NCBI RefSeq assembly: GCF_044324785.1
Contig: NZ_CP172127.1
From: Escherichia coli
Lineage (GTDB): Bacteria; Pseudomonadota; Gammaproteobacteria; Enterobacterales; Enterobacteriaceae
Reading direction: 5' to 3' (one strand)
Length of the DNA stretch: 64,000 nt
Part shown: in pieces, positions 1-9,508 of the stretch
Position numbering within the stretch: the stretch's first letter is position 1
Layout: each line of letters begins with the position of its first letter
Made by a program: the position numbers and the translations under genes
The notes under the pieces: generated by a model
Seen by the model: the letters and a program-made list of their open reading frames with translations, nothing else
The model's database searches: none
What the model was told of the DNA's origin: nothing

Positions 1-992
1 ACAATGCGGCTGGCAAAGTAATCCATATTGTCGTAAATCTTGCGCAGGGAATCGGCCGAGATTGTCAGGCTGGAGGCGCTGGCCCCGCTGATTTTGCCGG
101 TTTCCAGTAAATGCACCACCGATTCCTGTAGCACTTCCGAATACATCATAAACGGAGGAATTTCCGGGTTTTCCCCCAGACGCGCCATTACCGCATTATT
201 GATATTGCCCACGCCACTTTGCAGCGGCAGAAATTCCGGCGGAATACGCCCATGCGCCATTTCCTGCAACAAGAACGTGACCACGTTATCGGCAATCTGC
301 TGGCACATGGGATTTTGCTTATCCAGCATATTACCGGCGTCGGGCAAGTTGGTTTCCACGACGGCGACAATCTTTTTCGGATCGATTTGCACATAGCGGG
401 TACCGACGCGATCCATTGCATGGAAGATCGACACGCTATTGCGCCGCGGTGGCGCGCCAGGAATCACAATATCTGCCAGTTCTGCAACGCGCGGATCGTG
501 ATAGTGATTGAGTTCAATGATCACTTTCTTCGCCCGCAGCAGCCAGGTCGGCGCATTACCGATCCCGCTGGTTAACCAGACTCGACCATCCGGTGCCAGT
601 GCCGATGCTTCAATGACGGCAACATCAATGTCGCCGAAGAAACCGTAATTGACCATTTGCGCCACTTCGCTCAAATGCAGGTCAACGAAACTCACCGCGC
701 CCTGATTGATCTTTTTACGTAAACCGGACGATGTTTGATATGGCGCACGCCAGGAAACAGCATCGGCGTCAGAAAGTACATCGTCAGCGGCGGCGCTGAT
801 TGACGCACCCGTCAGCAGGCGAATTTGATACGGCTTTTTGGCCTCATGCTGTTCGTTAGCTCTGCGGGCAATCGCGGTGGGTAAGGCTTTCGGCGAACCC
901 GCTGGGGTAAAGCCGCTAAATGCCACCATGTCGTTATGCTGGATAATTTCTGCCGCTTCATCGGCGGTCATCCTTGTCCACTGAGTTTCCAT
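1..992 (-). CDS. scpC: propionyl-CoA:succinate CoA-transferase; 5-prime ~330 codons only, the 3-prime end runs off the window start
   Basis: Minus-strand frame open from window edge to ATG at 990-992; translation begins METQWTRMTADEAAEIIQHNDMVAFSGF; AAGGAG RBS just upstream; directly downstream of scpB. Confidence 0.85.
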   Translation of the reverse strand, partial: METQWTRMTADEAAEIIQHNDMVAFSGFTPAGSPKALPTAIARRANEQHEAKKPYQIRLLTGASISAAADDVLSDADAVSWRAPYQTSSGLRKKINQGAVSFVDLHLSEVAQMVNYGFFGDIDVAVIEASALAPDGRVWLTSGIGNAPTWLLRAKKVIIELNHYHDPRVAELADIVIPGAPPRRNSVSIFHAMDRVGTRYVQIDPKKIVAVVETNLPDAGNMLDKQNPMCQQIADNVVTFLLQEMAHGRIPPEFLPLQSGVGNINNAVMARLGENPEIPPFMMYSEVLQESVVHLLETGKISGASASSLTISADSLRKIYDNMDYFASRI

Positions 993-1015
993 TTTTACTC
1001 CTTCGTTCGCAGGGA

Positions 1016-1801
1016 TTAATGACCAACGAAATTAGGTTTACGTTTTTCGAGGAAAGCGTTCATCCCTTCCTGGTAATCTTCGCTGTCATAAACGGCGCGG
1101 CGCATCCCCTGAATACGTTCAAATTCATCGGAGTTCATGGTGTGCGCTTCGCCCAGTACACGCAGCTCTTCTTTGATAACGGCAATGGCTAACGGCGCTT
1201 TCTCAGAGATGTGGTGCGCCATTTGTAAGGTGAAATCTTCCAGTTCTTCCACTTCCACAACATGGTTGAGAATGCCGACAGCCAGCGCGCGCTGGGCTGT
1301 GATTGGCGAAGCGGTAAAAATCAGCTCTTTGACAATGTGGAAGCCCGCGTCGCGGGTCAGGTTGTGAATGCCGACCAGGTTATACGGGACGCCGAGGTTT
1401 ACAGGTGTCATTGAGAAGGTTGAGGTACTGGCGGCGATGATCAGATCGGAACTCATGATCATTTCAAATGCGCCACCCCAGACACTACCTTCCACCATCG
1501 AAATGATCGGTTTCGGGAATTTTTGGATCATGCGGGTGATTTGACGCAACGGATCATCATAGGAGAGCGGATCGCGACCGCCAGACGGTAGTTCGTGAAT
1601 ATCGTGACCTGCGGAGAAGACTTTGGATCCACTCGGCGCGCGCAAAATGATACAGCGAATTTCCGGCCGGTTGAGATCGCTTAACGCCTGCATAAGATCA
1701 TCAATAAAGACTTTACTTAAGGCATTAAGTTTTCGGCCATAGTTAAACTCAATGACCGCCACTTTGTTGATAGTGGCAACGTTCACATACTGATAAGACA
1801 T
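1016..1801 (-). CDS. scpB: methylmalonyl-CoA decarboxylase (enoyl-CoA hydratase/crotonase fold), 261 aa
   Basis: ORF track 1016..1843; start moved to internal ATG (MSYQYVNVATINKVAV) matching recalled N-terminus; crotonase-like sequence. Confidence 0.85.
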   Translation of the reverse strand: MSYQYVNVATINKVAVIEFNYGRKLNALSKVFIDDLMQALSDLNRPEIRCIILRAPSGSKVFSAGHDIHELPSGGRDPLSYDDPLRQITRMIQKFPKPIISMVEGSVWGGAFEMIMSSDLIIAASTSTFSMTPVNLGVPYNLVGIHNLTRDAGFHIVKELIFTASPITAQRALAVGILNHVVEVEELEDFTLQMAHHISEKAPLAIAVIKEELRVLGEAHTMNSDEFERIQGMRRAVYDSEDYQEGMNAFLEKRKPNFVGH

Positions 1802-1811
1802 AAAAATTCCT

Positions 1812-2807
1812 TTAATCAAAATATTGCGTCTGGATAAATTCACTGAGCTGTCGCAGGCCGGTGCGCGGTGAGAGCGTATTGTTTTTGACCGCTAAAAGCG
1901 TCTGGCGGTAATAGCGATCGAAATCTTCATTCGCGAACAGGTGATTCAGTACTTCTTCTTCGGTTTGTTTACGCAGCCATTCCACCGATTGTTGTTGCCG
2001 CACTTGTTGTAATCGACCACTGGCAGTTAGCGCGGTTTTGAAGTCGATGATGGCGTGCCAGATCTCATCGATTCCACGTTTTTCCAGTGCGCTACAAGTC
2101 AGAACCCGTGGCTGCCATTCGTCGTATTTACGTCGCAGAATATGCAGGGCACTCTCGTACATATGCCGGGCAATGGCGATATTGGTATGGTTATCGCCAT
2201 CGTCTTTGTTGATAACGATCAGATCTGCCACTTCCATCAGCCCCTTTTTAATGCCCTGCAGATCATCGCCGCCACCGGCAATTTGCAACGAGATAAAACA
2301 GTCCACCATGCGGGCGACTTCCGTTTCTGACTGCCCGACGCCAACCGTTTCGACAATCACTACGTCATAACCCGCCGCTTCGCATAACAGCATTAATTCC
2401 CGCGCTCGCTGACTGGCACCGCCCAGATGGCCGGAGGAGGGTACCGGGCGAATAAACGCCGCCTCGGCACGCGCCAGGTCATTCATGCGGGTTTTATCCC
2501 CGAGGATGCTACCGCCAGTGACCGGGCTGCTAGGATCGACCGCAATAACCGCAACCTTTAGTCCCTCACGAATCAACAACATGCCAAAGGCTTCAAGAAA
2601 GGTACTTTTCCCCGCGCCGGGTGTGCCGGTAACACCCAGTCGCAGGGCGTTACCACAGAACGGCATAATGGCATCAAGCAGCTGCGTACTTAGCGCCTGA
2701 TGACGCGGGTGACGGCTTTCCACCAGCGTCATGGCCTGGGCGAGCGTGGCACGCTCACCCTGACGTAAGCGGCGAATACTTTCTGCCAGCGTGGCTTCAT
2801 TAATCAT
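1812..2807 (-). CDS. argK: MeaB-like GTPase accessory protein of methylmalonyl-CoA mutase, 331 aa
   Basis: P-loop GTPGAGKST visible; overlaps scpA stop by 8 nt; operon position. Confidence 0.9.
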
Positions 2808-4944
2808 GATGCTGGCTTATTAGATTCAGTACGTCGCGCACGCTGTCGAGCATAGGCGTACCTGGACCATAAATCGCCGCCACGCCGCGCTCTTGCAGGA
2901 AGGCGTAATCCTGCGGCGGAATGACGCCACCGGCGACTACGCAGATATCTTCGCGTCCCCATTTTTTCAGCGCTTCGACCAGTTCCGGGATCAGCGTTTT
3001 ATGGCCGGCAGCCAGTGAGGATGCGCCCACTACGTGAACATCATTTTCTACTGCCAGGCGGGCGATCTCTTCAGGTGTAGAGAACATCGGGCTTAAATCT
3101 ACGTCGAAACCGAGATCGGAATAGGCGCTGGCGATCACTTTCGCGCCGCGATCGTGCCCATCCTGGCCCATTTTGGCGATCAGAATGCGCGGGCGACGAC
3201 CATTGTCGGCAAGGAACTGCTCCGTTTGCGCAACAATGGCATCGAACTCGGTGGCCGATTTCTCAGACTGATGATAGCTTTGCGCAATCACGCCGGTAAC
3301 ACACTGGCTTGGCACCAGATAACGGTCAAATGCCGCTTCCAGCGCATCGGAAATTTCACCAAGCGTTGCGCGAACGCGAGCGGCATTAACAGCGGCAGCC
3401 AGCAGGTTTTCGTTATGCTGTGCGGCGTGAGTCAGGGCGTTCAACGTGGCGGTTACGGCGGCATCATCACGGGTGGCGCGAATGCGTTCCAGTGAAGCAA
3501 TCTGCTCGTTACGCACCATCACGTTGTCGATCTCAAGTACATCGGTTTCGTCTTCGTGATCCAGTTTGTACTTATTGACACCAACGATGACACGCTTGCC
3601 CTGGTCGATCAACGACTGTTCGCGCGCGGAGGCCTCTTCGATCATTCGTTTTGGCAGACCTGCTTCGATCGCTTTCGCCATGCCACCGGCTTCGTCGATC
3701 TGTTGGATAATGGCTCTGGCTTGTTTGACGATTTGATCGGTCAGTGATTCAACGTAATAGGATCCGGCCAGTGGATCGACGGTGCGGCAGAGTTCTGATT
3801 CTTCCTGAATGATGATCTGGGTATTGCGGGCAATGCGTGCTGAGAAATCGGTAGGCAAACCAAGCGCTTCATCAAAGGCGTTGGTATGCAGTGACTGAGT
3901 ACCGCCCAGCGTTGCAGCCAGTGCTTCAATGGTGGTGCGGATAACGTTGTTATACGGATCCTGTTCAGTCAGGCTCCAGCCTGAGGTCTGGCAGTGGGTA
4001 CGCAGCGCCAGTGATTTAGGATCCTGTGCGCCAAATCCACTGACCGCTTCGCTCCATAAAAAACGTGCCGCACGCAACATGGCGACGTTCATAAACAGAT
4101 CCATGCCGATGCCGAAGAAGAACGACAGGCGAGGAGCGAAGTCATCAATTTTCAGCCCAGCGGATATTGCTGCTTTGATGTACTCAATCCCATCGGCGAG
4201 CGTAAATGCTACCTGCTGCACGCAGTTGGCACCCGCTTCACCCATGTGGTAACCGCTGATACTGATGGTATTAAATCGCGGCATGTTGCCGGAACACCAG
4301 GCGATGATGTCGGCGATAATGCGCATTGACGGTTTTGGCGGGTAAATATAGGTGTTGCGGCAGAGGTACTCTTTGAGGATATCGTTTTGAATGGTGCCGG
4401 TCAGTTTATCAGGTGTAACACCTTGCTCTTCCGCGGCGACGATATAAAACGCCAGTACTGGTAGCACTGCGCCATTCATGGTCATCGAAACCGACATTTT
4501 ATCCAGCGGGATCTGGTCGAACAGGACTTTCATATCTTCCACGGTGTCGATAGCGACGCCCGCTTTGCCGACGTCGCCCGCCACGCGTGGGTTATCGGAG
4601 TCGTAGCCTCGGTGGGTGGCAAGGTCAAACGCAACGGAAAGACCTTTTTGCCCGGCGGCCAGGTTACGGCGATAAAAAGCGTTGGACTCTTTTGCTGTTG
4701 AAAAACCAGCATACTGACGGATGGTCCACGGTTGGGCGGTATACATAGTGGCACGCGGGCCACGAACGTAGGGAGGCAAACCAGGAAGGGTACCTGTCAC
4801 CTCCAGATTATCGAGATCGGCTTCGGTATACAGCGGCTTGATGGCGATCCCTTCCGCGGTTTGCTGAACCAGCGAGTCGACAGTTTTCTCCCGACGGCTC
4901 AATTCCTTGTTGGCAAGCTGTTGCCACTCCTGCACGTTAGACAT
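2800..4944 (-). CDS. scpA: B12-dependent methylmalonyl-CoA mutase (Sbm), 714 aa
   Basis: ORF 2800..4965 trimmed to ATG giving [16 protein letters not shown]12-binding DxHxxG motif (GQDGHDRG) near C-terminus. Confidence 0.9.
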
Positions 4945-5112
4945 TATTTGCTCCGTAAAACGCAATCAAAATGAGGGTATTTGCGCCTACGGTGAGCTTT
5001 TTACGTGGGTTTGTCGCCAGCAAAAAAAATGCATTCAGACGTCGTTTTTTGCCGCCTGAGATTTGTCTATTTTGTGATGTGATTCAAGGAATACAAAAAG
5101 AAGTGAGGACAA

Positions 5113-5133
5113 CGCCTGATATGTGCTATCAGG
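5113..5133 (-). terminator. stem-loop (GCCTGATA/TATCAGGC arms) just downstream of argP stop
   Basis: Inverted repeat gcctgatatgtgctatcaggc read directly; no strong U-tract. Confidence 0.4.
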
Positions 5134-5147
5134 CATTATTTGATGGA

Positions 5148-6041
5148 TTAATCCTGACGAAGGACTTTGTGACCATAATCGAGTAACGCATCAGTGACTT
5201 TACGCATCATGCGGCTTTCAGGAGCAAAGCGGTGCCAGTAGAGCATCCGTCGTTGAAATAGCCCAGGCGTTAAGTCAATCAGTTCACCGCTGGCCAGCTC
5301 TTTCTCGATTTGCAGGTGCGGGATCATACAGCAGGTGGTGCCCTGGCGAGCAAGTTGCACGAACGCTTCTGAAGAATTAACGATATGGCACGGTACGCTG
5401 CCTGGGGGCAGATCGAAGTTTTGCTGCAAAAAGGCCTGGTGCATATCGTCAAGATGGTCAAAGGCGACCACTGGCGCTTTTAGCAGAGCCGAACGCGTTA
5501 CGCCGTTAGGGAAATATTTTTCGGCAAACGGTTTTGAGCTGACGAACAGATAGTCGAGCGCACCGAGCTTATCGACAAGACAACTCGGCAGCGCCTGATG
5601 TTGAATACTCACCGCGCCGACCACTTCGCCGCGGCGCAGACGTTCCTGAGTGCGGGTTTCATCTTCTACCTGCAAGTTGAGGCGGATAGGCGAATCAGCC
5701 AACACAGGAGCCAGCGCCGGAAGCAACCACGTCGCCAGACTGTCGGCGTTGACCGCCAGTGAAAGCAGCAGCGGAGTCGAACCGGTTTGTTCATCGCCCA
5801 GCCACTCTTCTTCCAGCAACTCCACCTGGCGTAGCAGTGCCAGCAGTTTTTGCCCTTGTTCTGTCGGGCGCGGTGGTACGGTACGCACCAACAGCGGCTG
5901 CCCGAACATATTTTCCAGTTGCTTAATGCGCTGTGAGACGGCTGATTGTGTAATGCACAGCTTTTGTGCCGCGCGCTCAAATCCTCGTTCACGTATCACC
6001 GCATCCAGTGCCTGTAATGTTCTGTAGTCCGGGCGTTTCAT
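5148..6041 (-). CDS. argP: LysR-family transcriptional regulator ArgP/IciA, 297 aa
   Basis: ORF 5148..6107 trimmed to ATG giving [43 protein letters not shown] (HTH). Confidence 0.9.
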
Positions 6042-6423
6042 TGCTGTTGTCTGCTCCTGGTAAATGCTTTTTCCTGCACTATGACACAATTTTGTGTCAG
6101 GTTGCATATACCGAAGCCGTCGGCGGGTAACATTTGTATTCGTGGTTAAACGCGCAGCTTAAAAGATCAGGGATTTGCGCTAATGCATTTCGCTCAGCGA
6201 GTTCGCGCCCTGGTTGTGTTGAATGGCGTGGCGTTATTGCCTCTGTTCGCACCGTGGAGCGGCATACCCAGACCGTTGTATGCTTTATTTGCCGGGCGAA
6301 AGGGGATGCCCGCCATTGCGCGATATTTTATGGATGAGTTAACCATGCGGCTTGCCAACGGGGTCTGAATCGCTTTTTTTGTATATAATGCGTGTGAAAT
6401 TTCATACCACAGGCGAAACGATC

Positions 6424-7083
6424 ATGACGCAGGATGAATTGAAAAAAGCAGTAGGATGGGCGGCACTTCAGTATGTTCAGCCCGGCACCATTGTTGGTGT
6501 AGGTACAGGTTCCACCGCCGCACACTTTATTGACGCGCTCGGTACAATGAAAGGCCAGATTGAAGGGGCCGTTTCCAGTTCAGATGCTTCCACTGAAAAA
6601 CTGAAAAGCCTCGGCATTCACGTTTTTGATCTCAACGAAGTCGACAGCCTTGGCATCTACGTTGATGGCGCAGATGAAATCAACGGCCACATGCAAATGA
6701 TCAAAGGCGGCGGCGCGGCGCTGACCCGTGAAAAAATCATTGCTTCGGTTGCGGAAAAATTTATTTGTATTGCCGACGCCTCCAAGCAGGTTGATATTCT
6801 GGGCAAATTCCCGCTGCCAGTAGAAGTTATCCCGATGGCACGTAGTGCAGTGGCGCGCCAGCTGGTGAAACTGGGCGGTCGTCCGGAATACCGTCAGGGC
6901 GTGGTGACCGATAATGGCAACGTGATCCTCGACGTCCACGGCATGGAAATCCTTGACCCGATAGCGATGGAAAACGCCATAAATGCGATTCCTGGCGTGG
7001 TGACTGTTGGCTTGTTTGCTAACCGTGGCGCGGACGTTGCGCTGATTGGTACACCTGACGGTGTCAAAACCATTGTGAAATGA
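6424..7083 (+). CDS. rpiA: ribose-5-phosphate isomerase A, 219 aa
   Basis: ORF 6352..7083 trimmed to ATG giving [31 protein letters not shown]. Confidence 0.9.
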
Positions 7084-7087
7084 TCTG

Positions 7088-7106
7088 ACGGGGGAACCTC
7101 CCCCGT
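7088..7106 (+). terminator. perfect 8-bp GC stem-loop (ACGGGGGA/TCCCCCGT) immediately after rpiA stop
   Basis: Inverted repeat read directly; followed by A-run not U-run, so terminator function uncertain. Confidence 0.4.
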
Positions 7107-7338
7107 TAAAAAAATTCTCTTCATTAAATTTGGTGACATGTGTCACGTTTTTACCTGGCTATTGTCGATTGCTCTAAATAAACCCTCTAAACCAGCATAT
7201 TCATCCAAGAAATACCTTTGCGTGATATTTCCTCAACATCGCGACGCAAACGTTCATATTGCCGCAATATTATTTTTTGATATGTTGAAAGGCGGATGCA
7301 AATCCGCACACAACATTTCAAAAGACAGGATTGGGTAA

Positions 7339-8571
7339 ATGGCAAAGGTATCGCTGGAGAAAGACAAGATTAAGTTTCTGCTGGTAGAAGGCGTGCACCA
7401 AAAGGCGCTGGAAAGCCTTCGTGCAGCGGGTTACACCAACATCGAATTTCACAAAGGCGCGCTGGATGATGAACAATTAAAAGAATCCATCCGCGATGCC
7501 CACTTCATCGGCCTGCGATCCCGTACCCATCTGACTGAAGACGTGATCAACGCCGCAGAAAAACTGGTCGCTATTGGCTGTTTCTGTATCGGAACAAACC
7601 AGGTTGATCTGGATGCGGCGGCAAAACGCGGTATCCCGGTATTTAACGCACCGTTCTCAAATACGCGCTCTGTTGCGGAGCTGGTGATTGGCGAACTGCT
7701 GCTGCTATTGCGCGGCGTGCCGGAAGCCAATGCTAAAGCGCACCGTGGCGTGTGGAACAAACTGGCGGCGGGTTCTTTTGAAGCGCGCGGCAAAAAGCTG
7801 GGTATCATCGGCTACGGTCATATTGGTACGCAATTGGGCATTCTGGCTGAATCGCTGGGAATGTATGTTTACTTTTATGATATTGAAAATAAACTGCCGC
7901 TGGGTAACGCCACTCAGGTACAGCATCTTTCTGACCTGCTGAATATGAGCGATGTGGTGAGTCTGCATGTACCAGAGAATCCGTCCACCAAAAATATGAT
8001 GGGCGCGAAAGAAATTTCACTAATGAAGCCCGGCTCGCTGCTGATTAATGCTTCGCGCGGTACTGTGGTGGATATTCCGGCGCTGTGTGACGCGCTGGCG
8101 AGCAAACATCTGGCGGGGGCGGCAATCGACGTATTCCCGACGGAACCGGCGACCAATAGCGATCCATTTACCTCTCCGCTGTGTGAATTCGACAACGTCC
8201 TTCTGACGCCACACATTGGCGGTTCGACTCAGGAAGCGCAGGAGAATATTGGCCTGGAAGTTGCGGGTAAATTGATCAAGTATTCTGACAATGGCTCAAC
8301 GCTCTCTGCGGTGAACTTCCCGGAAGTCTCGCTGCCACTGCACGGTGGGCGTCGTCTGATGCACATCCACGAAAACCGTCCGGGCGTGCTAACTGCGCTG
8401 AACAAAATCTTCGCCGAGCAGGGCGTCAACATCGCCGCGCAATATCTACAAACTTCCGCCCAGATGGGTTATGTGGTTATTGATATTGAAGCCGACGAAG
8501 ACGTTGCCGAAAAAGCTCTGCAGGCAATGAAAGCTATTCCGGGTACCATTCGCGCCCGCCTGCTGTACTAA
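7339..8571 (+). CDS. serA: D-3-phosphoglycerate dehydrogenase, 410 aa
   Basis: Full-length ORF; NAD-binding GIIGYGHIGTQLG; C-terminal ACT-like region. Confidence 0.95.
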   Translation: MAKVSLEKDKIKFLLVEGVHQKALESLRAAGYTNIEFHKGALDDEQLKESIRDAHFIGLRSRTHLTEDVINAAEKLVAIGCFCIGTNQVDLDAAAKRGIPVFNAPFSNTRSVAELVIGELLLLLRGVPEANAKAHRGVWNKLAAGSFEARGKKLGIIGYGHIGTQLGILAESLGMYVYFYDIENKLPLGNATQVQHLSDLLNMSDVVSLHVPENPSTKNMMGAKEISLMKPGSLLINASRGTVVDIPALCDALASKHLAGAAIDVFPTEPATNSDPFTSPLCEFDNVLLTPHIGGSTQEAQENIGLEVAGKLIKYSDNGSTLSAVNFPEVSLPLHGGRRLMHIHENRPGVLTALNKIFAEQGVNIAAQYLQTSAQMGYVVIDIEADEDVAEKALQAMKAIPGTIRARLLY

Positions 8572-8591
8572 TTCCCCTTCTCTGAAAATCA

Positions 8592-8623
8592 ACGGGCAGG
8601 TCACTGACTTGCCCGTTTTTTTA
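8592..8623 (+). terminator. rho-independent terminator of serA
   Basis: ACGGGCA...TGCCCGT stem followed by TTTTTTT. Confidence 0.75.
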
Positions 8624-8757
8624 TCGCTTCTCCACACCGTTGCCGCGTTGTGCATTCGGCTTTGCGAGTCTGCTCCAGAAAATAAATCAAAGTCAGATCA
8701 ATGCGTTGTGTTTATTTAATGGGGATTTACGATGGCAGGGCAGCATGGGGCTGTAAC

Positions 8758-8899
8758 GGTAAAGCCCTCACCGAAGCGAGGGCTTGAAGGAGAAGGGTTA
8801 TGATGCGACTTGTCATCATACTGATTGTACTGTTACTCATAAGTTTCCCAGCTTATTAACAGTCAGTCTCAGGGGAGGAGTCATCCTCCCTTACCCTTA
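8758..8899 (-). ncRNA. sibC: SibC antisense sRNA (antitoxin of ibsC); boundaries approximate
   Basis: Minus-strand TTGACA (8929-8934) - 17 nt - TAATTT (8906-8911) promoter; GCCCTC..GAGGGC hairpin plus UUU at 8764-8783; ~140 nt fully overlapping ibsC on opposite strand. Confidence 0.65.
8800..8859 (+). CDS. ibsC: type I toxin, 19-aa hydrophobic peptide IbsC (MMRLVIILIVLLLISFPAY)
   Basis: ATG ATG CGA CTT GTC ... TAT TAA read directly; GAAGGAGAAGG RBS 4-14 nt upstream; location in serA-ygfA intergenic region. Confidence 0.8.
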   Translation: MMRLVIILIVLLLISFPAY

Positions 8900-8959
8900 C
8901 TCACTAAATTAGGTTAAAGAATCAACGATGTCAATCAGGGCGATGCAGGTGTGTCGCCC

Positions 8960-9508
8960 TTACCACTCCCAGACTTTCGACGGTGTAACCACCGCAGGAA
9001 GTGGGATATCCCACTCTTCAACGGGGAGTTTTTCCACCAACTGACAATCATGCGCATAACCCACCGGTTGCATTTGATAGCGCTGCCAGTTTTGTAAGGT
9101 CCGATCATAAAAACCACCGCCCATTCCCAGGCGCTGACCGTACTCATCAAAGGCGACCAGCGGTGTGATCAACACGTCTAATCGGGAAAGGGGTAGCACG
9201 TCACGCACATCCAGTTTTGGCTCATGGATCTTCAACCTGTTCATCACCAGTTCGCTTTGCGGATGGTAATTCAGGAACAGCAAATTACCGGCACTAAAGG
9301 GATGCAAAACTGGAAGATATACGCGCTTACCGGCGCGCCAGAGTTGTTCTATGAGTGGCTGGGTGTCGAGTTCGCCATCAAAAGAGAGGAATACAGCGAC
9401 CGTATGCGCCATCACCACTGGGGGATACGTCATCATCCGGGTAGCGGCTTGTTGACCCATTTCCTGCTGTTGTTCCGGCGTTAACGCACGACGACGTTGC
9501 CGAATCAT
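8960..9508 (-). CDS. ygfA: 5-formyltetrahydrofolate cyclo-ligase family protein, 182 aa (alternative ATG at 9562 would give 200 aa)
   Basis: ORF 8960..9706 trimmed because its 5-prime 66 codons overlap the 6S RNA gene; MIRQRRRALTPEQQQEMGQQAATR N-terminus. Confidence 0.8.
   Translation of the reverse strand: MIRQRRRALTPEQQQEMGQQAATRMMTYPPVVMAHTVAVFLSFDGELDTQPLIEQLWRAGKRVYLPVLHPFSAGNLLFLNYHPQSELVMNRLKIHEPKLDVRDVLPLSRLDVLITPLVAFDEYGQRLGMGGGFYDRTLQNWQRYQMQPVGYAHDCQLVEKLPVEEWDIPLPAVVTPSKVWEW

Follow-up and report, generated by a model that had tools for sequence, protein, structure and literature searches.

Introduction

The closest described relative of the locus analysed here is the "sleeping beauty mutase" operon of Escherichia coli K-12, sbm-ygfD-ygfG-ygfH. 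Its first product, Sbm (ScpA), interconverts succinyl-coenzyme A (CoA) and methylmalonyl-CoA in a B12-dependent reaction, as work cited in PMC5512728 and PMC3850637 has shown. The operon is said to be scarcely expressed, perhaps because its promoter is inactive or weak, and Sbm to be an apo-enzyme unless cobalamin is supplied; when the operon is cloned and B12 is provided, propionate or 1-propanol is formed (PMC3850637). Froese et al. (2009), as cited in PMC3901258, reported that Sbm is expressed and interacts physically with YgfD. Here we examine the same locus in another E. coli strain (assembly GCF_044324785.1, contig NZ_CP172127.1), where it lies at the start of a stretch of 64,000 nt, hereafter the window. 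We conclude, with a probability of roughly 0.8, that the window carries the known sbm-ygfDGH operon, here called scpA-meaB-scpB-scpC (meaB is also named argK), as a functional gene set that is maintained by selection and is not a relic. The operon itself was already known, and the window holds an ordinary example of it; the new results are its linkage to the LysR-family gene srsR (ygfI) across genomic contexts and a conserved dyad upstream of scpA.

How does this locus compare with known systems? It shares with the K-12 operon the genes, their order, their junctions, and the position between argP and srsR/ygfI. It differs in that the window has a rare allele with three substitutions at nearly invariant columns, and in that the edge of the window interrupts scpC. 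The Wood-Werkman or succinate pathway of propionibacteria and gut anaerobes likewise combines a B12-dependent rearrangement of succinyl-CoA with CoA-transferase recycling that leads to propionate. The organisms that use it have a heterodimeric mutase, a methylmalonyl-CoA epimerase, and either a biotin-dependent transcarboxylase or a Na+-pumping decarboxylase. In contrast, the mutase encoded here is a single chain that is nearer, or equally near, to human MMUT than to Propionibacterium shermanii MutB, no epimerase is linked to it, and the decarboxylase is a soluble crotonase-fold enzyme, which implies that no energy is conserved (for the Wood-Werkman organisms see also PMC5512728). The human MMUT-MMAA and Methylobacterium MCM-MeaB pairs are homologous to ScpA and MeaB, with the P-loop and the DxHxxG motif kept. 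Those pairs run catabolically, from methylmalonyl-CoA to succinyl-CoA, whereas here, with a decarboxylase coupled to the mutase, the net direction should be the reverse. ScpC belongs to the same class I family as the succinyl-CoA:acetate CoA-transferases Acetobacter AarC and Pseudomonas putida ScpC (E = 2e-130 to Protein Data Bank (PDB) entry 4EU3). However, those enzymes act in acetate metabolism outside a mutase operon (PMC9927547), while the best-scoring model for the ScpC studied here is the YgfH subfamily and its gene is embedded in the mutase operon. Finally, the locus resembles LysR-regulated catabolic operons in the HTH_1 and LysR_substrate domains of SrsR, in the co-inheritance of srsR with the enzyme genes, and in the conserved dyad before the first enzyme gene. 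It departs from them in that srsR is convergent at the 3' end, the dyad spans 33 bp in place of the classical 15-bp T-N11-A site, and the published SrsR regulon does not include scpA.

Gene identity and layout

Positions 1-6000 of the window are E. coli chromosome, with 100% identity to six complete genomes and about 98% identity to most others. Strain XDL, which is 100% identical over this interval, served as the annotated reference (record L001, from whose coordinates 4000 is subtracted to obtain those of the window); its annotated gene order is srsR, scpC, scpB, meaB, scpA, argP, rpiA, serA. The first-pass annotation of this DNA had identified the operon correctly and had called it silent, as the literature does (PMC3850637, PMC5512728), leaving the strand unstated; all of the operon genes lie on the minus strand. 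Three are complete: scpA (sbm; 2800..4944, 714 amino acids), encoding the adenosylcobalamin-dependent methylmalonyl-CoA mutase; meaB (argK/ygfD; 1812..2807, 331 amino acids), encoding the G-protein chaperone of the mutase; and scpB (ygfG; 1016..1801, 261 amino acids), encoding a biotin-independent methylmalonyl-CoA decarboxylase of the crotonase fold. Translation of these three genes gives no internal stops. The fourth gene, scpC (ygfH; 1..992), encoding propionyl-CoA:succinate CoA-transferase, is represented by its 5' part only (330 of 492 codons), the rest lying past the window start. Thus, the earlier statement that all four genes are intact stands for scpA, meaB, and scpB and cannot be read from the window for scpC; in XDL the gene is full length (L001 3514-4992), and it is complete in the genomes identical over positions 1-6000.

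The junctions are as tight as had been claimed. The scpA stop codon (2802-2800) and the argK ATG (2807-2805) fall within 8 nt common to the two genes, and gaps of 10 nt and 23 nt separate meaB from scpB and scpB from scpC, each containing a Shine-Dalgarno-like AGGA or GGAG. A GGAG Shine-Dalgarno sequence (4951..4954, minus strand) also stands 6 nt upstream of the scpA ATG and is kept in most of the genera aligned. The four genes are therefore co-oriented, with junctions compatible with co-transcription, at the argP/srsR locus, and their order is identical in 47 species loci.

Protein identities were assigned by the curated NCBIfam cut-offs, which come from a subfamily model in the case of ScpC and from equivalog models for the other three proteins; all four proteins exceed them. 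ScpA scores 1251.8 bits against NF006944 (cut-off 876), contains the Pfam domains PF01642 (residues 28-539) and PF02310 (residues 586-701), and aligns end to end with human MMUT (927 bits) and P. shermanii MutB (900 bits). The B12-binding motif DxHxxG reads DGHDRG at residues 595-600, and the RQY, GYH, and CRNTY stretches (RQY78, GY232-H233, and R196) align with chain A of PDB 1REQ and with human MMUT. We take the aligned Tyr, His, and Arg to be the active-site residues and the His of DxHxxG to be the lower cobalt ligand, as in the P. shermanii structure. MeaB scores 493.8 bits against NF006958 (cut-off 329), matches the E. coli structure PDB 2P67 (E = 3e-218), and has the Walker A P-loop GTPGAGKST at residues 61-69; both motifs that had been noted as preserved in ScpA and MeaB are thus present. 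ScpB scores 486.8 bits against NF008506 (cut-off 257) over positions 1-261 of 261, and matches the E. coli structures PDB 1EF8 and 6N92 over the same residues (E = 5e-172). The full-length ScpC of a genome identical over positions 1-6000 scores 754.5 bits against TIGR03458 (cut-off 658.7) and resembles PDB 2NVV and AarC (PDB 4EU3). Its Pfam domains are AcetylCoA_hydro and AcetylCoA_hyd_C; the C-terminal one (317-461) lies mostly past the edge of the window, which encodes residues 1-330.

The window proteins differ from those of K-12 at 6 of 714 residues in ScpA, 3 in MeaB, 1 in ScpB (V9A), and 2 in ScpC. Three of these changes, ScpA Y295F, ScpA A500T, and MeaB V210I, are conservative and fall at columns that are otherwise invariant or nearly so (46-47 of 47). 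The scp/argP allele of the window is rare; identity over the first 6 kb reaches 99% in only 8 of 5425 genomes. We note that the next 27.7 kb (6001-33694) are only 98.8% identical to XDL despite the 100% identity over 1-6000, that the 25.7 kb at 33695-59362 are missing from XDL, which has the insertion sequence IS1 beside a truncated sigma-54 activator gene there, and that the IS1 and IS4 features of the XDL annotation are not features of the window. The pattern of the window allele relative to XDL suggests that the region is a mosaic produced by recombination, whose boundary lies near argP/rpiA. Between these two genes lies a small open reading frame (6183-6368, plus strand) that is annotated inconsistently across genomes, with lengths of 186-231 nt and labels that range from hypothetical protein to "LysR substrate-binding domain-containing protein" or no annotation at all; it resembles a LysR-family gene fragment.

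The operon is under purifying selection

Is the operon maintained, or is it merely not yet decayed? We compared six E. coli loci, namely the window allele, K-12 NCM3722, O157:H7, strain 042, O112ab:H8, and strain E09. The ratio of nonsynonymous to synonymous polymorphism (pN/pS) is 0.058 for scpA, 0.057 for meaB, 0.012 for scpB, and 0.062 for scpC, and the synonymous diversity of the scp genes within the species is 3-7%. For the neighbouring genes in the same six loci, pN/pS is 0.044 (argO), 0.033 (srsR), 0.006 (argP), 0 (rpiA), and 0 (serA). Between species, the ratio of nonsynonymous to synonymous substitution rates (dN/dS) of the scp genes is 0.015-0.056 in comparisons with E. albertii, E. 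whittamii, Citrobacter amalonaticus, and Salmonella enterica subsp. arizonae, for which dS is at least 0.66 and is saturating in the more distant pairs. At these divergences, pN/pS of 0.01-0.06 and dN/dS of 0.015-0.056 make neutral drift untenable.

The integrity of the genes extends well beyond E. coli. A scan with ScpB as the query and one genome per species gave 48 loci in Escherichia, Citrobacter, Salmonella arizonae/diarizonae, the Klebsiella oxytoca group, Yokenella, Kosakonia, Yersinia, Sodalis, Acerihabitans, and others, and across 47-48 species there are no internal stops in any of the four scp genes. The scp operon is under purifying selection and is not a silent relic. The first-pass annotation had argued for conditional use from one strain without stops; the proposal is now supported by selection, by integrity across species, by conserved upstream DNA, and by the phenotype reported in a preprint, in which a dnaK mutant no longer affects a Caenorhabditis elegans proteasome reporter once the native operon is deleted (bioRxiv 10.64898/2026.01.15.699719). 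That phenotype points to activity of the native operon under some condition.

Enterobacterial scp modules also turn up under unexpected record names, including a "Bacillota bacterium" metagenome-assembled genome (MAG), "Martelella alba", and "Aeromonas sp. RU39B". The MAG contig that carries the module also encodes a 96%-identical ArgP. For these records, or at least for the MAG, contamination or misassignment is more likely than distant transfer.

A conserved dyad upstream of scpA

The 150 nt before the scpA start are nearly invariant in intact E. coli loci. When the upstream regions of 24 genera or species are aligned, a few alignable blocks stand out from a spacer that is otherwise unalignable. 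The most striking is a perfect 33-bp dyad, GCAAAAAA-N17-TTTTTTGC, at window positions 5020..5052 (assigned to neither strand), 76 nt upstream of the scpA ATG. Its arms and their 17-nt spacing are invariant in 32 species loci of Escherichia, Citrobacter, Salmonella, Klebsiella, Yokenella, Kosakonia, and Superficieibacter, in all of which the dyad spans 33 bp, at a distance of 72-76 nt from the scpA ATG. Five Yersinia loci have the variant left arm C[CT]AATAAT with unchanged spacing. A relaxed form of the pattern, searched on both strands of 1.49 Mb, otherwise matches only upstream of srsR in 5 Citrobacter loci, a related motif that might hint at autoregulation; upstream of srsR in E. coli, dyad-like arms are degenerate and their spacing differs. 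The fixed spacing around a variable spacer sequence marks the dyad as a candidate protein-binding site, that is, a candidate operator. An RNA hairpin or attenuator was considered and rejected, as the predicted minimum-free-energy fold leaves the dyad arms unpaired and has a z-score of only -1.98.

A second conserved block in the same alignment, TGGCGACAA ... AAAAAGCTCACCGTA (4966..5019, minus strand), lies between the dyad and the start codon and has a single polymorphic site across the six intact E. coli loci. The scpA promoter is presumed to lie inside this block, in which manual assignment of -35 and -10 hexamers or of a sigma-54 site gave nothing convincing. Beyond the dyad, a hairpin just after the argP stop codon (5114..5134, minus strand) is the likely argP terminator and separates argP from the scpA control region. 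In strain E09 this hairpin has a compensatory A>G / T>C stem pair (GCCTGATAGCACATATCAGGC to GCCTGGTAATACATACCAGGC), which is consistent with a functional terminator stem.

Farther away, the sole Rfam match in window positions 1-9000 is a SIB RNA (RF00113; 8784-8934, minus strand; 136.5 bits, E = 8e-29). It sits between serA and fau, where an identical genome annotates ibsC, and the two would make up a type I toxin-antitoxin pair of the Sib/Ibs kind. A second Ibs copy is present at the serA-fau position in O157:H7 and in an O112ab:H8 strain.

The operon is inherited together with srsR

The gene srsR (ygfI) encodes a LysR-type protein with HTH_1 and LysR_substrate domains and lies outside the window, at L001 2621-3517, where it abuts scpC in convergent orientation. 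In every one of the 47 species loci with enough flanking sequence, a convergent srsR homologue (58-99% identity) follows scpC. The five-gene block of srsR and scp occurs in at least seven unrelated genomic contexts, with Hafnia as the eighth. It is flanked by argP and yggE from Escherichia to Yokenella, by genes for a fructosamine kinase and YniB in Yersinia, by a flavin reductase gene and a 3-hydroxyisobutyrate-dehydrogenase-like gene in Sodalis, by Kup and FlgT genes in the Aeromonas sp. record, by amylase and AcpH genes in Superficieibacter, by an autotransporter gene in Kosakonia, by a major facilitator superfamily (MFS) transporter gene in the Acerihabitans group, and by an AI-2E transporter gene in Hafnia. 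None of the contexts examined offers an epimerase, an adenosyltransferase, or a transporter as an informative neighbour, as the flanks are unrelated housekeeping genes in each.

The reverse search gives a similar picture. The SrsR family has only 56 clusters in a database of 5.8 billion proteins. None of them falls below 61% identity to the query, and their taxa are those in which the operon occurs. Sampling by the regulator found srsR linked to scp in three of four contexts (Hafnia, a metagenome contig, and a contig with an E. coli-type context). The conserved unit is thus five genes, which makes SrsR the obvious candidate regulator. Present accounts treat SrsR as a stationary-phase stress regulator; direct control of fucAO, a proposed target, has been disproved (PMC11011485). 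The searchable literature gave us no report of a link between ygfI and sbm and no paper that mentions ygfI together with methylmalonyl.

Do the dyad arms resemble known SrsR sites? They contain the TTTTGC core of the published SrsR box TCAGATTTTGC, which was defined from tandem repeats in a prophage (PMC9181523), and the left arm, read on the other strand as TCGTTTTTTGC, matches 8 of 11 positions. The published box was nonetheless dropped as proof that SrsR binds the dyad, because the enrichment of such matches is weak and the architecture differs. In the published SrsR footprint, the K-12 yfdO/yfdP spacer (L065 5447-5517), we observe five direct repeats of TCAGATTTTGACGG(G) with a 15-bp period, each of which is nearly palindromic, while the source paper describes 11-bp boxes only.

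Observations that weigh against maintenance of the operon and its proposed control by SrsR

Several lines of evidence count against the reading advanced here, and the first is loss of the operon within E. coli. The interior of the operon is kept in 4310 of 5426 complete E. coli genomes and partially covered in another 34, while 1114 (20.5%, a figure that is not a population frequency since the collection is skewed to clinical isolates) have one deletion junction in common. The earlier remark that the operon shows no sign of decay therefore holds for this strain and fails for the species. The deletion removes 4273 bp, and its junction, across an imperfect 15-nt microhomology (TCAATGrTrGTGCGG), links the terminal 154 nt of scpC with scpA at position 3926 of the window, to produce an scpA stub fused to an scpC tail. 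The stub has since been shortened by 63 bp between 9-bp repeats (GGATCCTGT) and, in ATCC 25922, by another 39 bp; in these remnants the dyad is 32 bp long, with one T lost. The carriers include EC958, JJ1886, and other O25b:H4 strains of sequence type 131 (ST131), SE15, ATCC 25922, an O18:H1 strain, and an avian pathogenic E. coli (APEC) O2:K1:H4 strain, all of which we take to belong to phylogroup B2. The 4.27-kb deletion looks like one ancient event inherited by the B2 clade, and we found no description of it in the searchable literature. Major pathogens and commensals thus thrive without the operon, and strain MB51 has lost it separately, through a deletion associated with IS1. The operon is maintained in most lineages and dispensable in at least one large one.

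Second, signs of expression and of a complete pathway are scarce. No sigma-70 consensus promoter was found upstream on the scpA strand, and an Rfam search of window positions 1-9000 found no cobalamin riboswitch or other RNA element upstream of scpA. Methylmalonyl-CoA epimerase is not linked to the module in any of the at least eight contexts examined, which bears on the dispute over whether the encoded cycle is complete. Propionate from the scp route is not detectable in wild-type K-12 (PMC3850637), and the cycle has been described as incomplete without the epimerase, with the operon mainly boosting propionate formation from amino acids (PMC5512728).

Third, the link to SrsR has difficulties of its own. 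Genomic systematic evolution of ligands by exponential enrichment (SELEX) with SrsR gave 10 peaks, none of them at scpA (PMC9181523). Upstream of scpA there are 3 matches to the SrsR box at 8 or more of 11 positions, against 0.61 expected, a weak enrichment that about 2% of shuffles equal; unlike the 33-bp dyad, the published boxes repeat directly every 15 bp. The fourth context reached by sampling the regulator is an orphan SrsR homologue (68% identity) that lies beside cadBA, with no scp genes nearby, in an organism of 41% GC content. Moreover, srsR is intact in ATCC 25922, where the operon is gone, and broken in O157:H7, where the operon is kept, a mismatch that weakens a simple model of one regulator and one operon. 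The gene is disrupted more often than the scp enzyme genes: W193 is an amber codon (TGG>TAG) in O157:H7, with the identical change in the E. albertii type strain; S92 is an ochre codon in the B2 strain EC28; a stop is also present in Y. proxima; srsR is interrupted by a prophage in an O112ab:H8 strain and by IS1 in MB51; and many of the E. coli SrsR clusters in the protein database are truncated.

Discussion

The established biochemistry of the four proteins gives a pathway in which ScpA, charged with adenosylcobalamin and maintained in active form by MeaB, isomerises succinyl-CoA to methylmalonyl-CoA, ScpB decarboxylates this product to propionyl-CoA, and ScpC moves the CoA onto a new succinate, releasing propionate and regenerating succinyl-CoA. 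The low expression in the laboratory would reflect a non-consensus, regulator-dependent promoter and not dead genes. The most likely regulator would be SrsR/YgfI and its most likely binding site the dyad at 5020-5052. Gene identity, intactness, purifying selection, loss in one lineage, the linkage of the five genes, and the conserved dyad are observed here; binding by SrsR, the inducing signal, and the ecological role are inferred. E. coli is not known to make cobalamin de novo, so that the pathway can operate only at sites that provide corrinoids, such as the gut (PMC3850637).

What controls the operon? SrsR/YgfI may be its switch, acting through the dyad; this view comes from co-inheritance and the conservation of DNA, and the link between SrsR and the operon is suggestive only. 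In its full form, our hypothesis is that the operon is silent in the laboratory on account of an overlooked switch, in which SrsR would be the cognate, metabolite-responsive regulator acting at the dyad, and that the five genes would form a horizontally mobile module. We put this forward tentatively, at somewhat less than even odds.

The alternative that survives best is that the operon has no dedicated regulator. The dyad would then be bound by another factor, such as ArgP or a nucleoid protein that recognises A-tracts, or the operon would be read through from argP, and the adjacency of srsR would reflect hitch-hiking. LysR regulators usually lie divergent from their targets and not convergent at the 3' end, which agrees with this alternative, as do the absence of the scpA promoter from the SrsR SELEX peaks, the existence of the orphan homologue, the low information content of the dyad arms, which are A/T tracts, and the position of argP directly upstream in Escherichia, Citrobacter, Salmonella, and Klebsiella. 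However, both the dyad and srsR persist without an adjacent argP in Yersinia, Kosakonia, and Superficieibacter, and the srsR adjacency holds in the Aeromonas sp. and Hafnia loci as well. Read-through from argP would have to pass its likely hairpin terminator, and the conservation of the GC ends of the dyad and of the exact 17-nt spacer goes beyond A/T richness. An adjacency found in 47 of 47 loci over at least seven contexts is also hard to put down to chance. We regard the absence of a dedicated regulator as a serious contender that nevertheless falls clearly short of even odds.

A second alternative accepts that the genes are selected and assigns them another role. The operon would be maintained for handling methylmalonyl-CoA and propionyl-CoA in the breakdown of amino acids or odd-chain compounds, or ScpC alone for its activity as a succinyl-CoA:acetate CoA-transferase, with succinate decarboxylation an activity of the test tube or of overexpression. 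When overexpressed, the operon raises propionate formation from amino acids and permits isoleucine degradation, and propionate can be formed from glucose only with a foreign epimerase, since the product of ScpA is the (R)-isomer and decarboxylases reportedly use the (S)-isomer (PMC5512728). The 2026 preprint cited above likewise describes the pathway as leading from branched-chain amino acids to propionate. The lack of a linked epimerase in at least eight contexts fits this role, and ScpC also passes the NCBIfam model for succinyl-CoA:acetate CoA-transferase (601.8 bits against a cut-off of 500), in keeping with its resemblance to AarC (PDB 4EU3). On the other hand, a study that disputes the need for an epimerase, and that refers to Haller et al., finds ScpA and ScpB sufficient and reports that scpA-argK-scpB yielded propionyl-CoA in Pseudomonas taiwanensis on mineral medium (PMC10832534), and the co-inheritance of the four genes in every species, in fixed order and with tight junctions, argues that they work as one unit. 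We therefore consider a different role for the genes unlikely.

Finally, that the operon is a cryptic relic in the course of being lost, silent, unused, and intact here only for lack of time to decay, is very improbable, since the silence in laboratory strains, the ancient deletion with its 63-bp and 39-bp sequels, the IS1-mediated deletion in MB51, the missing consensus promoter, and the changes at near-invariant columns of ScpA and MeaB in the window strain stand against a selection analysis (low pN/pS and dN/dS) that largely refutes it, reading frames free of stops in 47-48 species, non-coding upstream DNA conserved across genera, and a reported deletion phenotype.

The scp operon, read here as a maintained and functional gene set, is textbook material and a workhorse of metabolic engineering, so that its confirmation in one more strain adds little. 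The co-inheritance of srsR and the dyad, by comparison, offer a concrete and inexpensive experimental way into a 25-year-old puzzle: the reason for the operon's silence and the trigger that ends it. Strong constraint in most E. coli and in about 50 other species of Enterobacterales coexists with a single ancient deletion in a lineage that includes ST131, ST73, and ST95. This lineage-specific loss turns the question of whether the operon is cryptic into an ecological one: what do B2 strains do without it?

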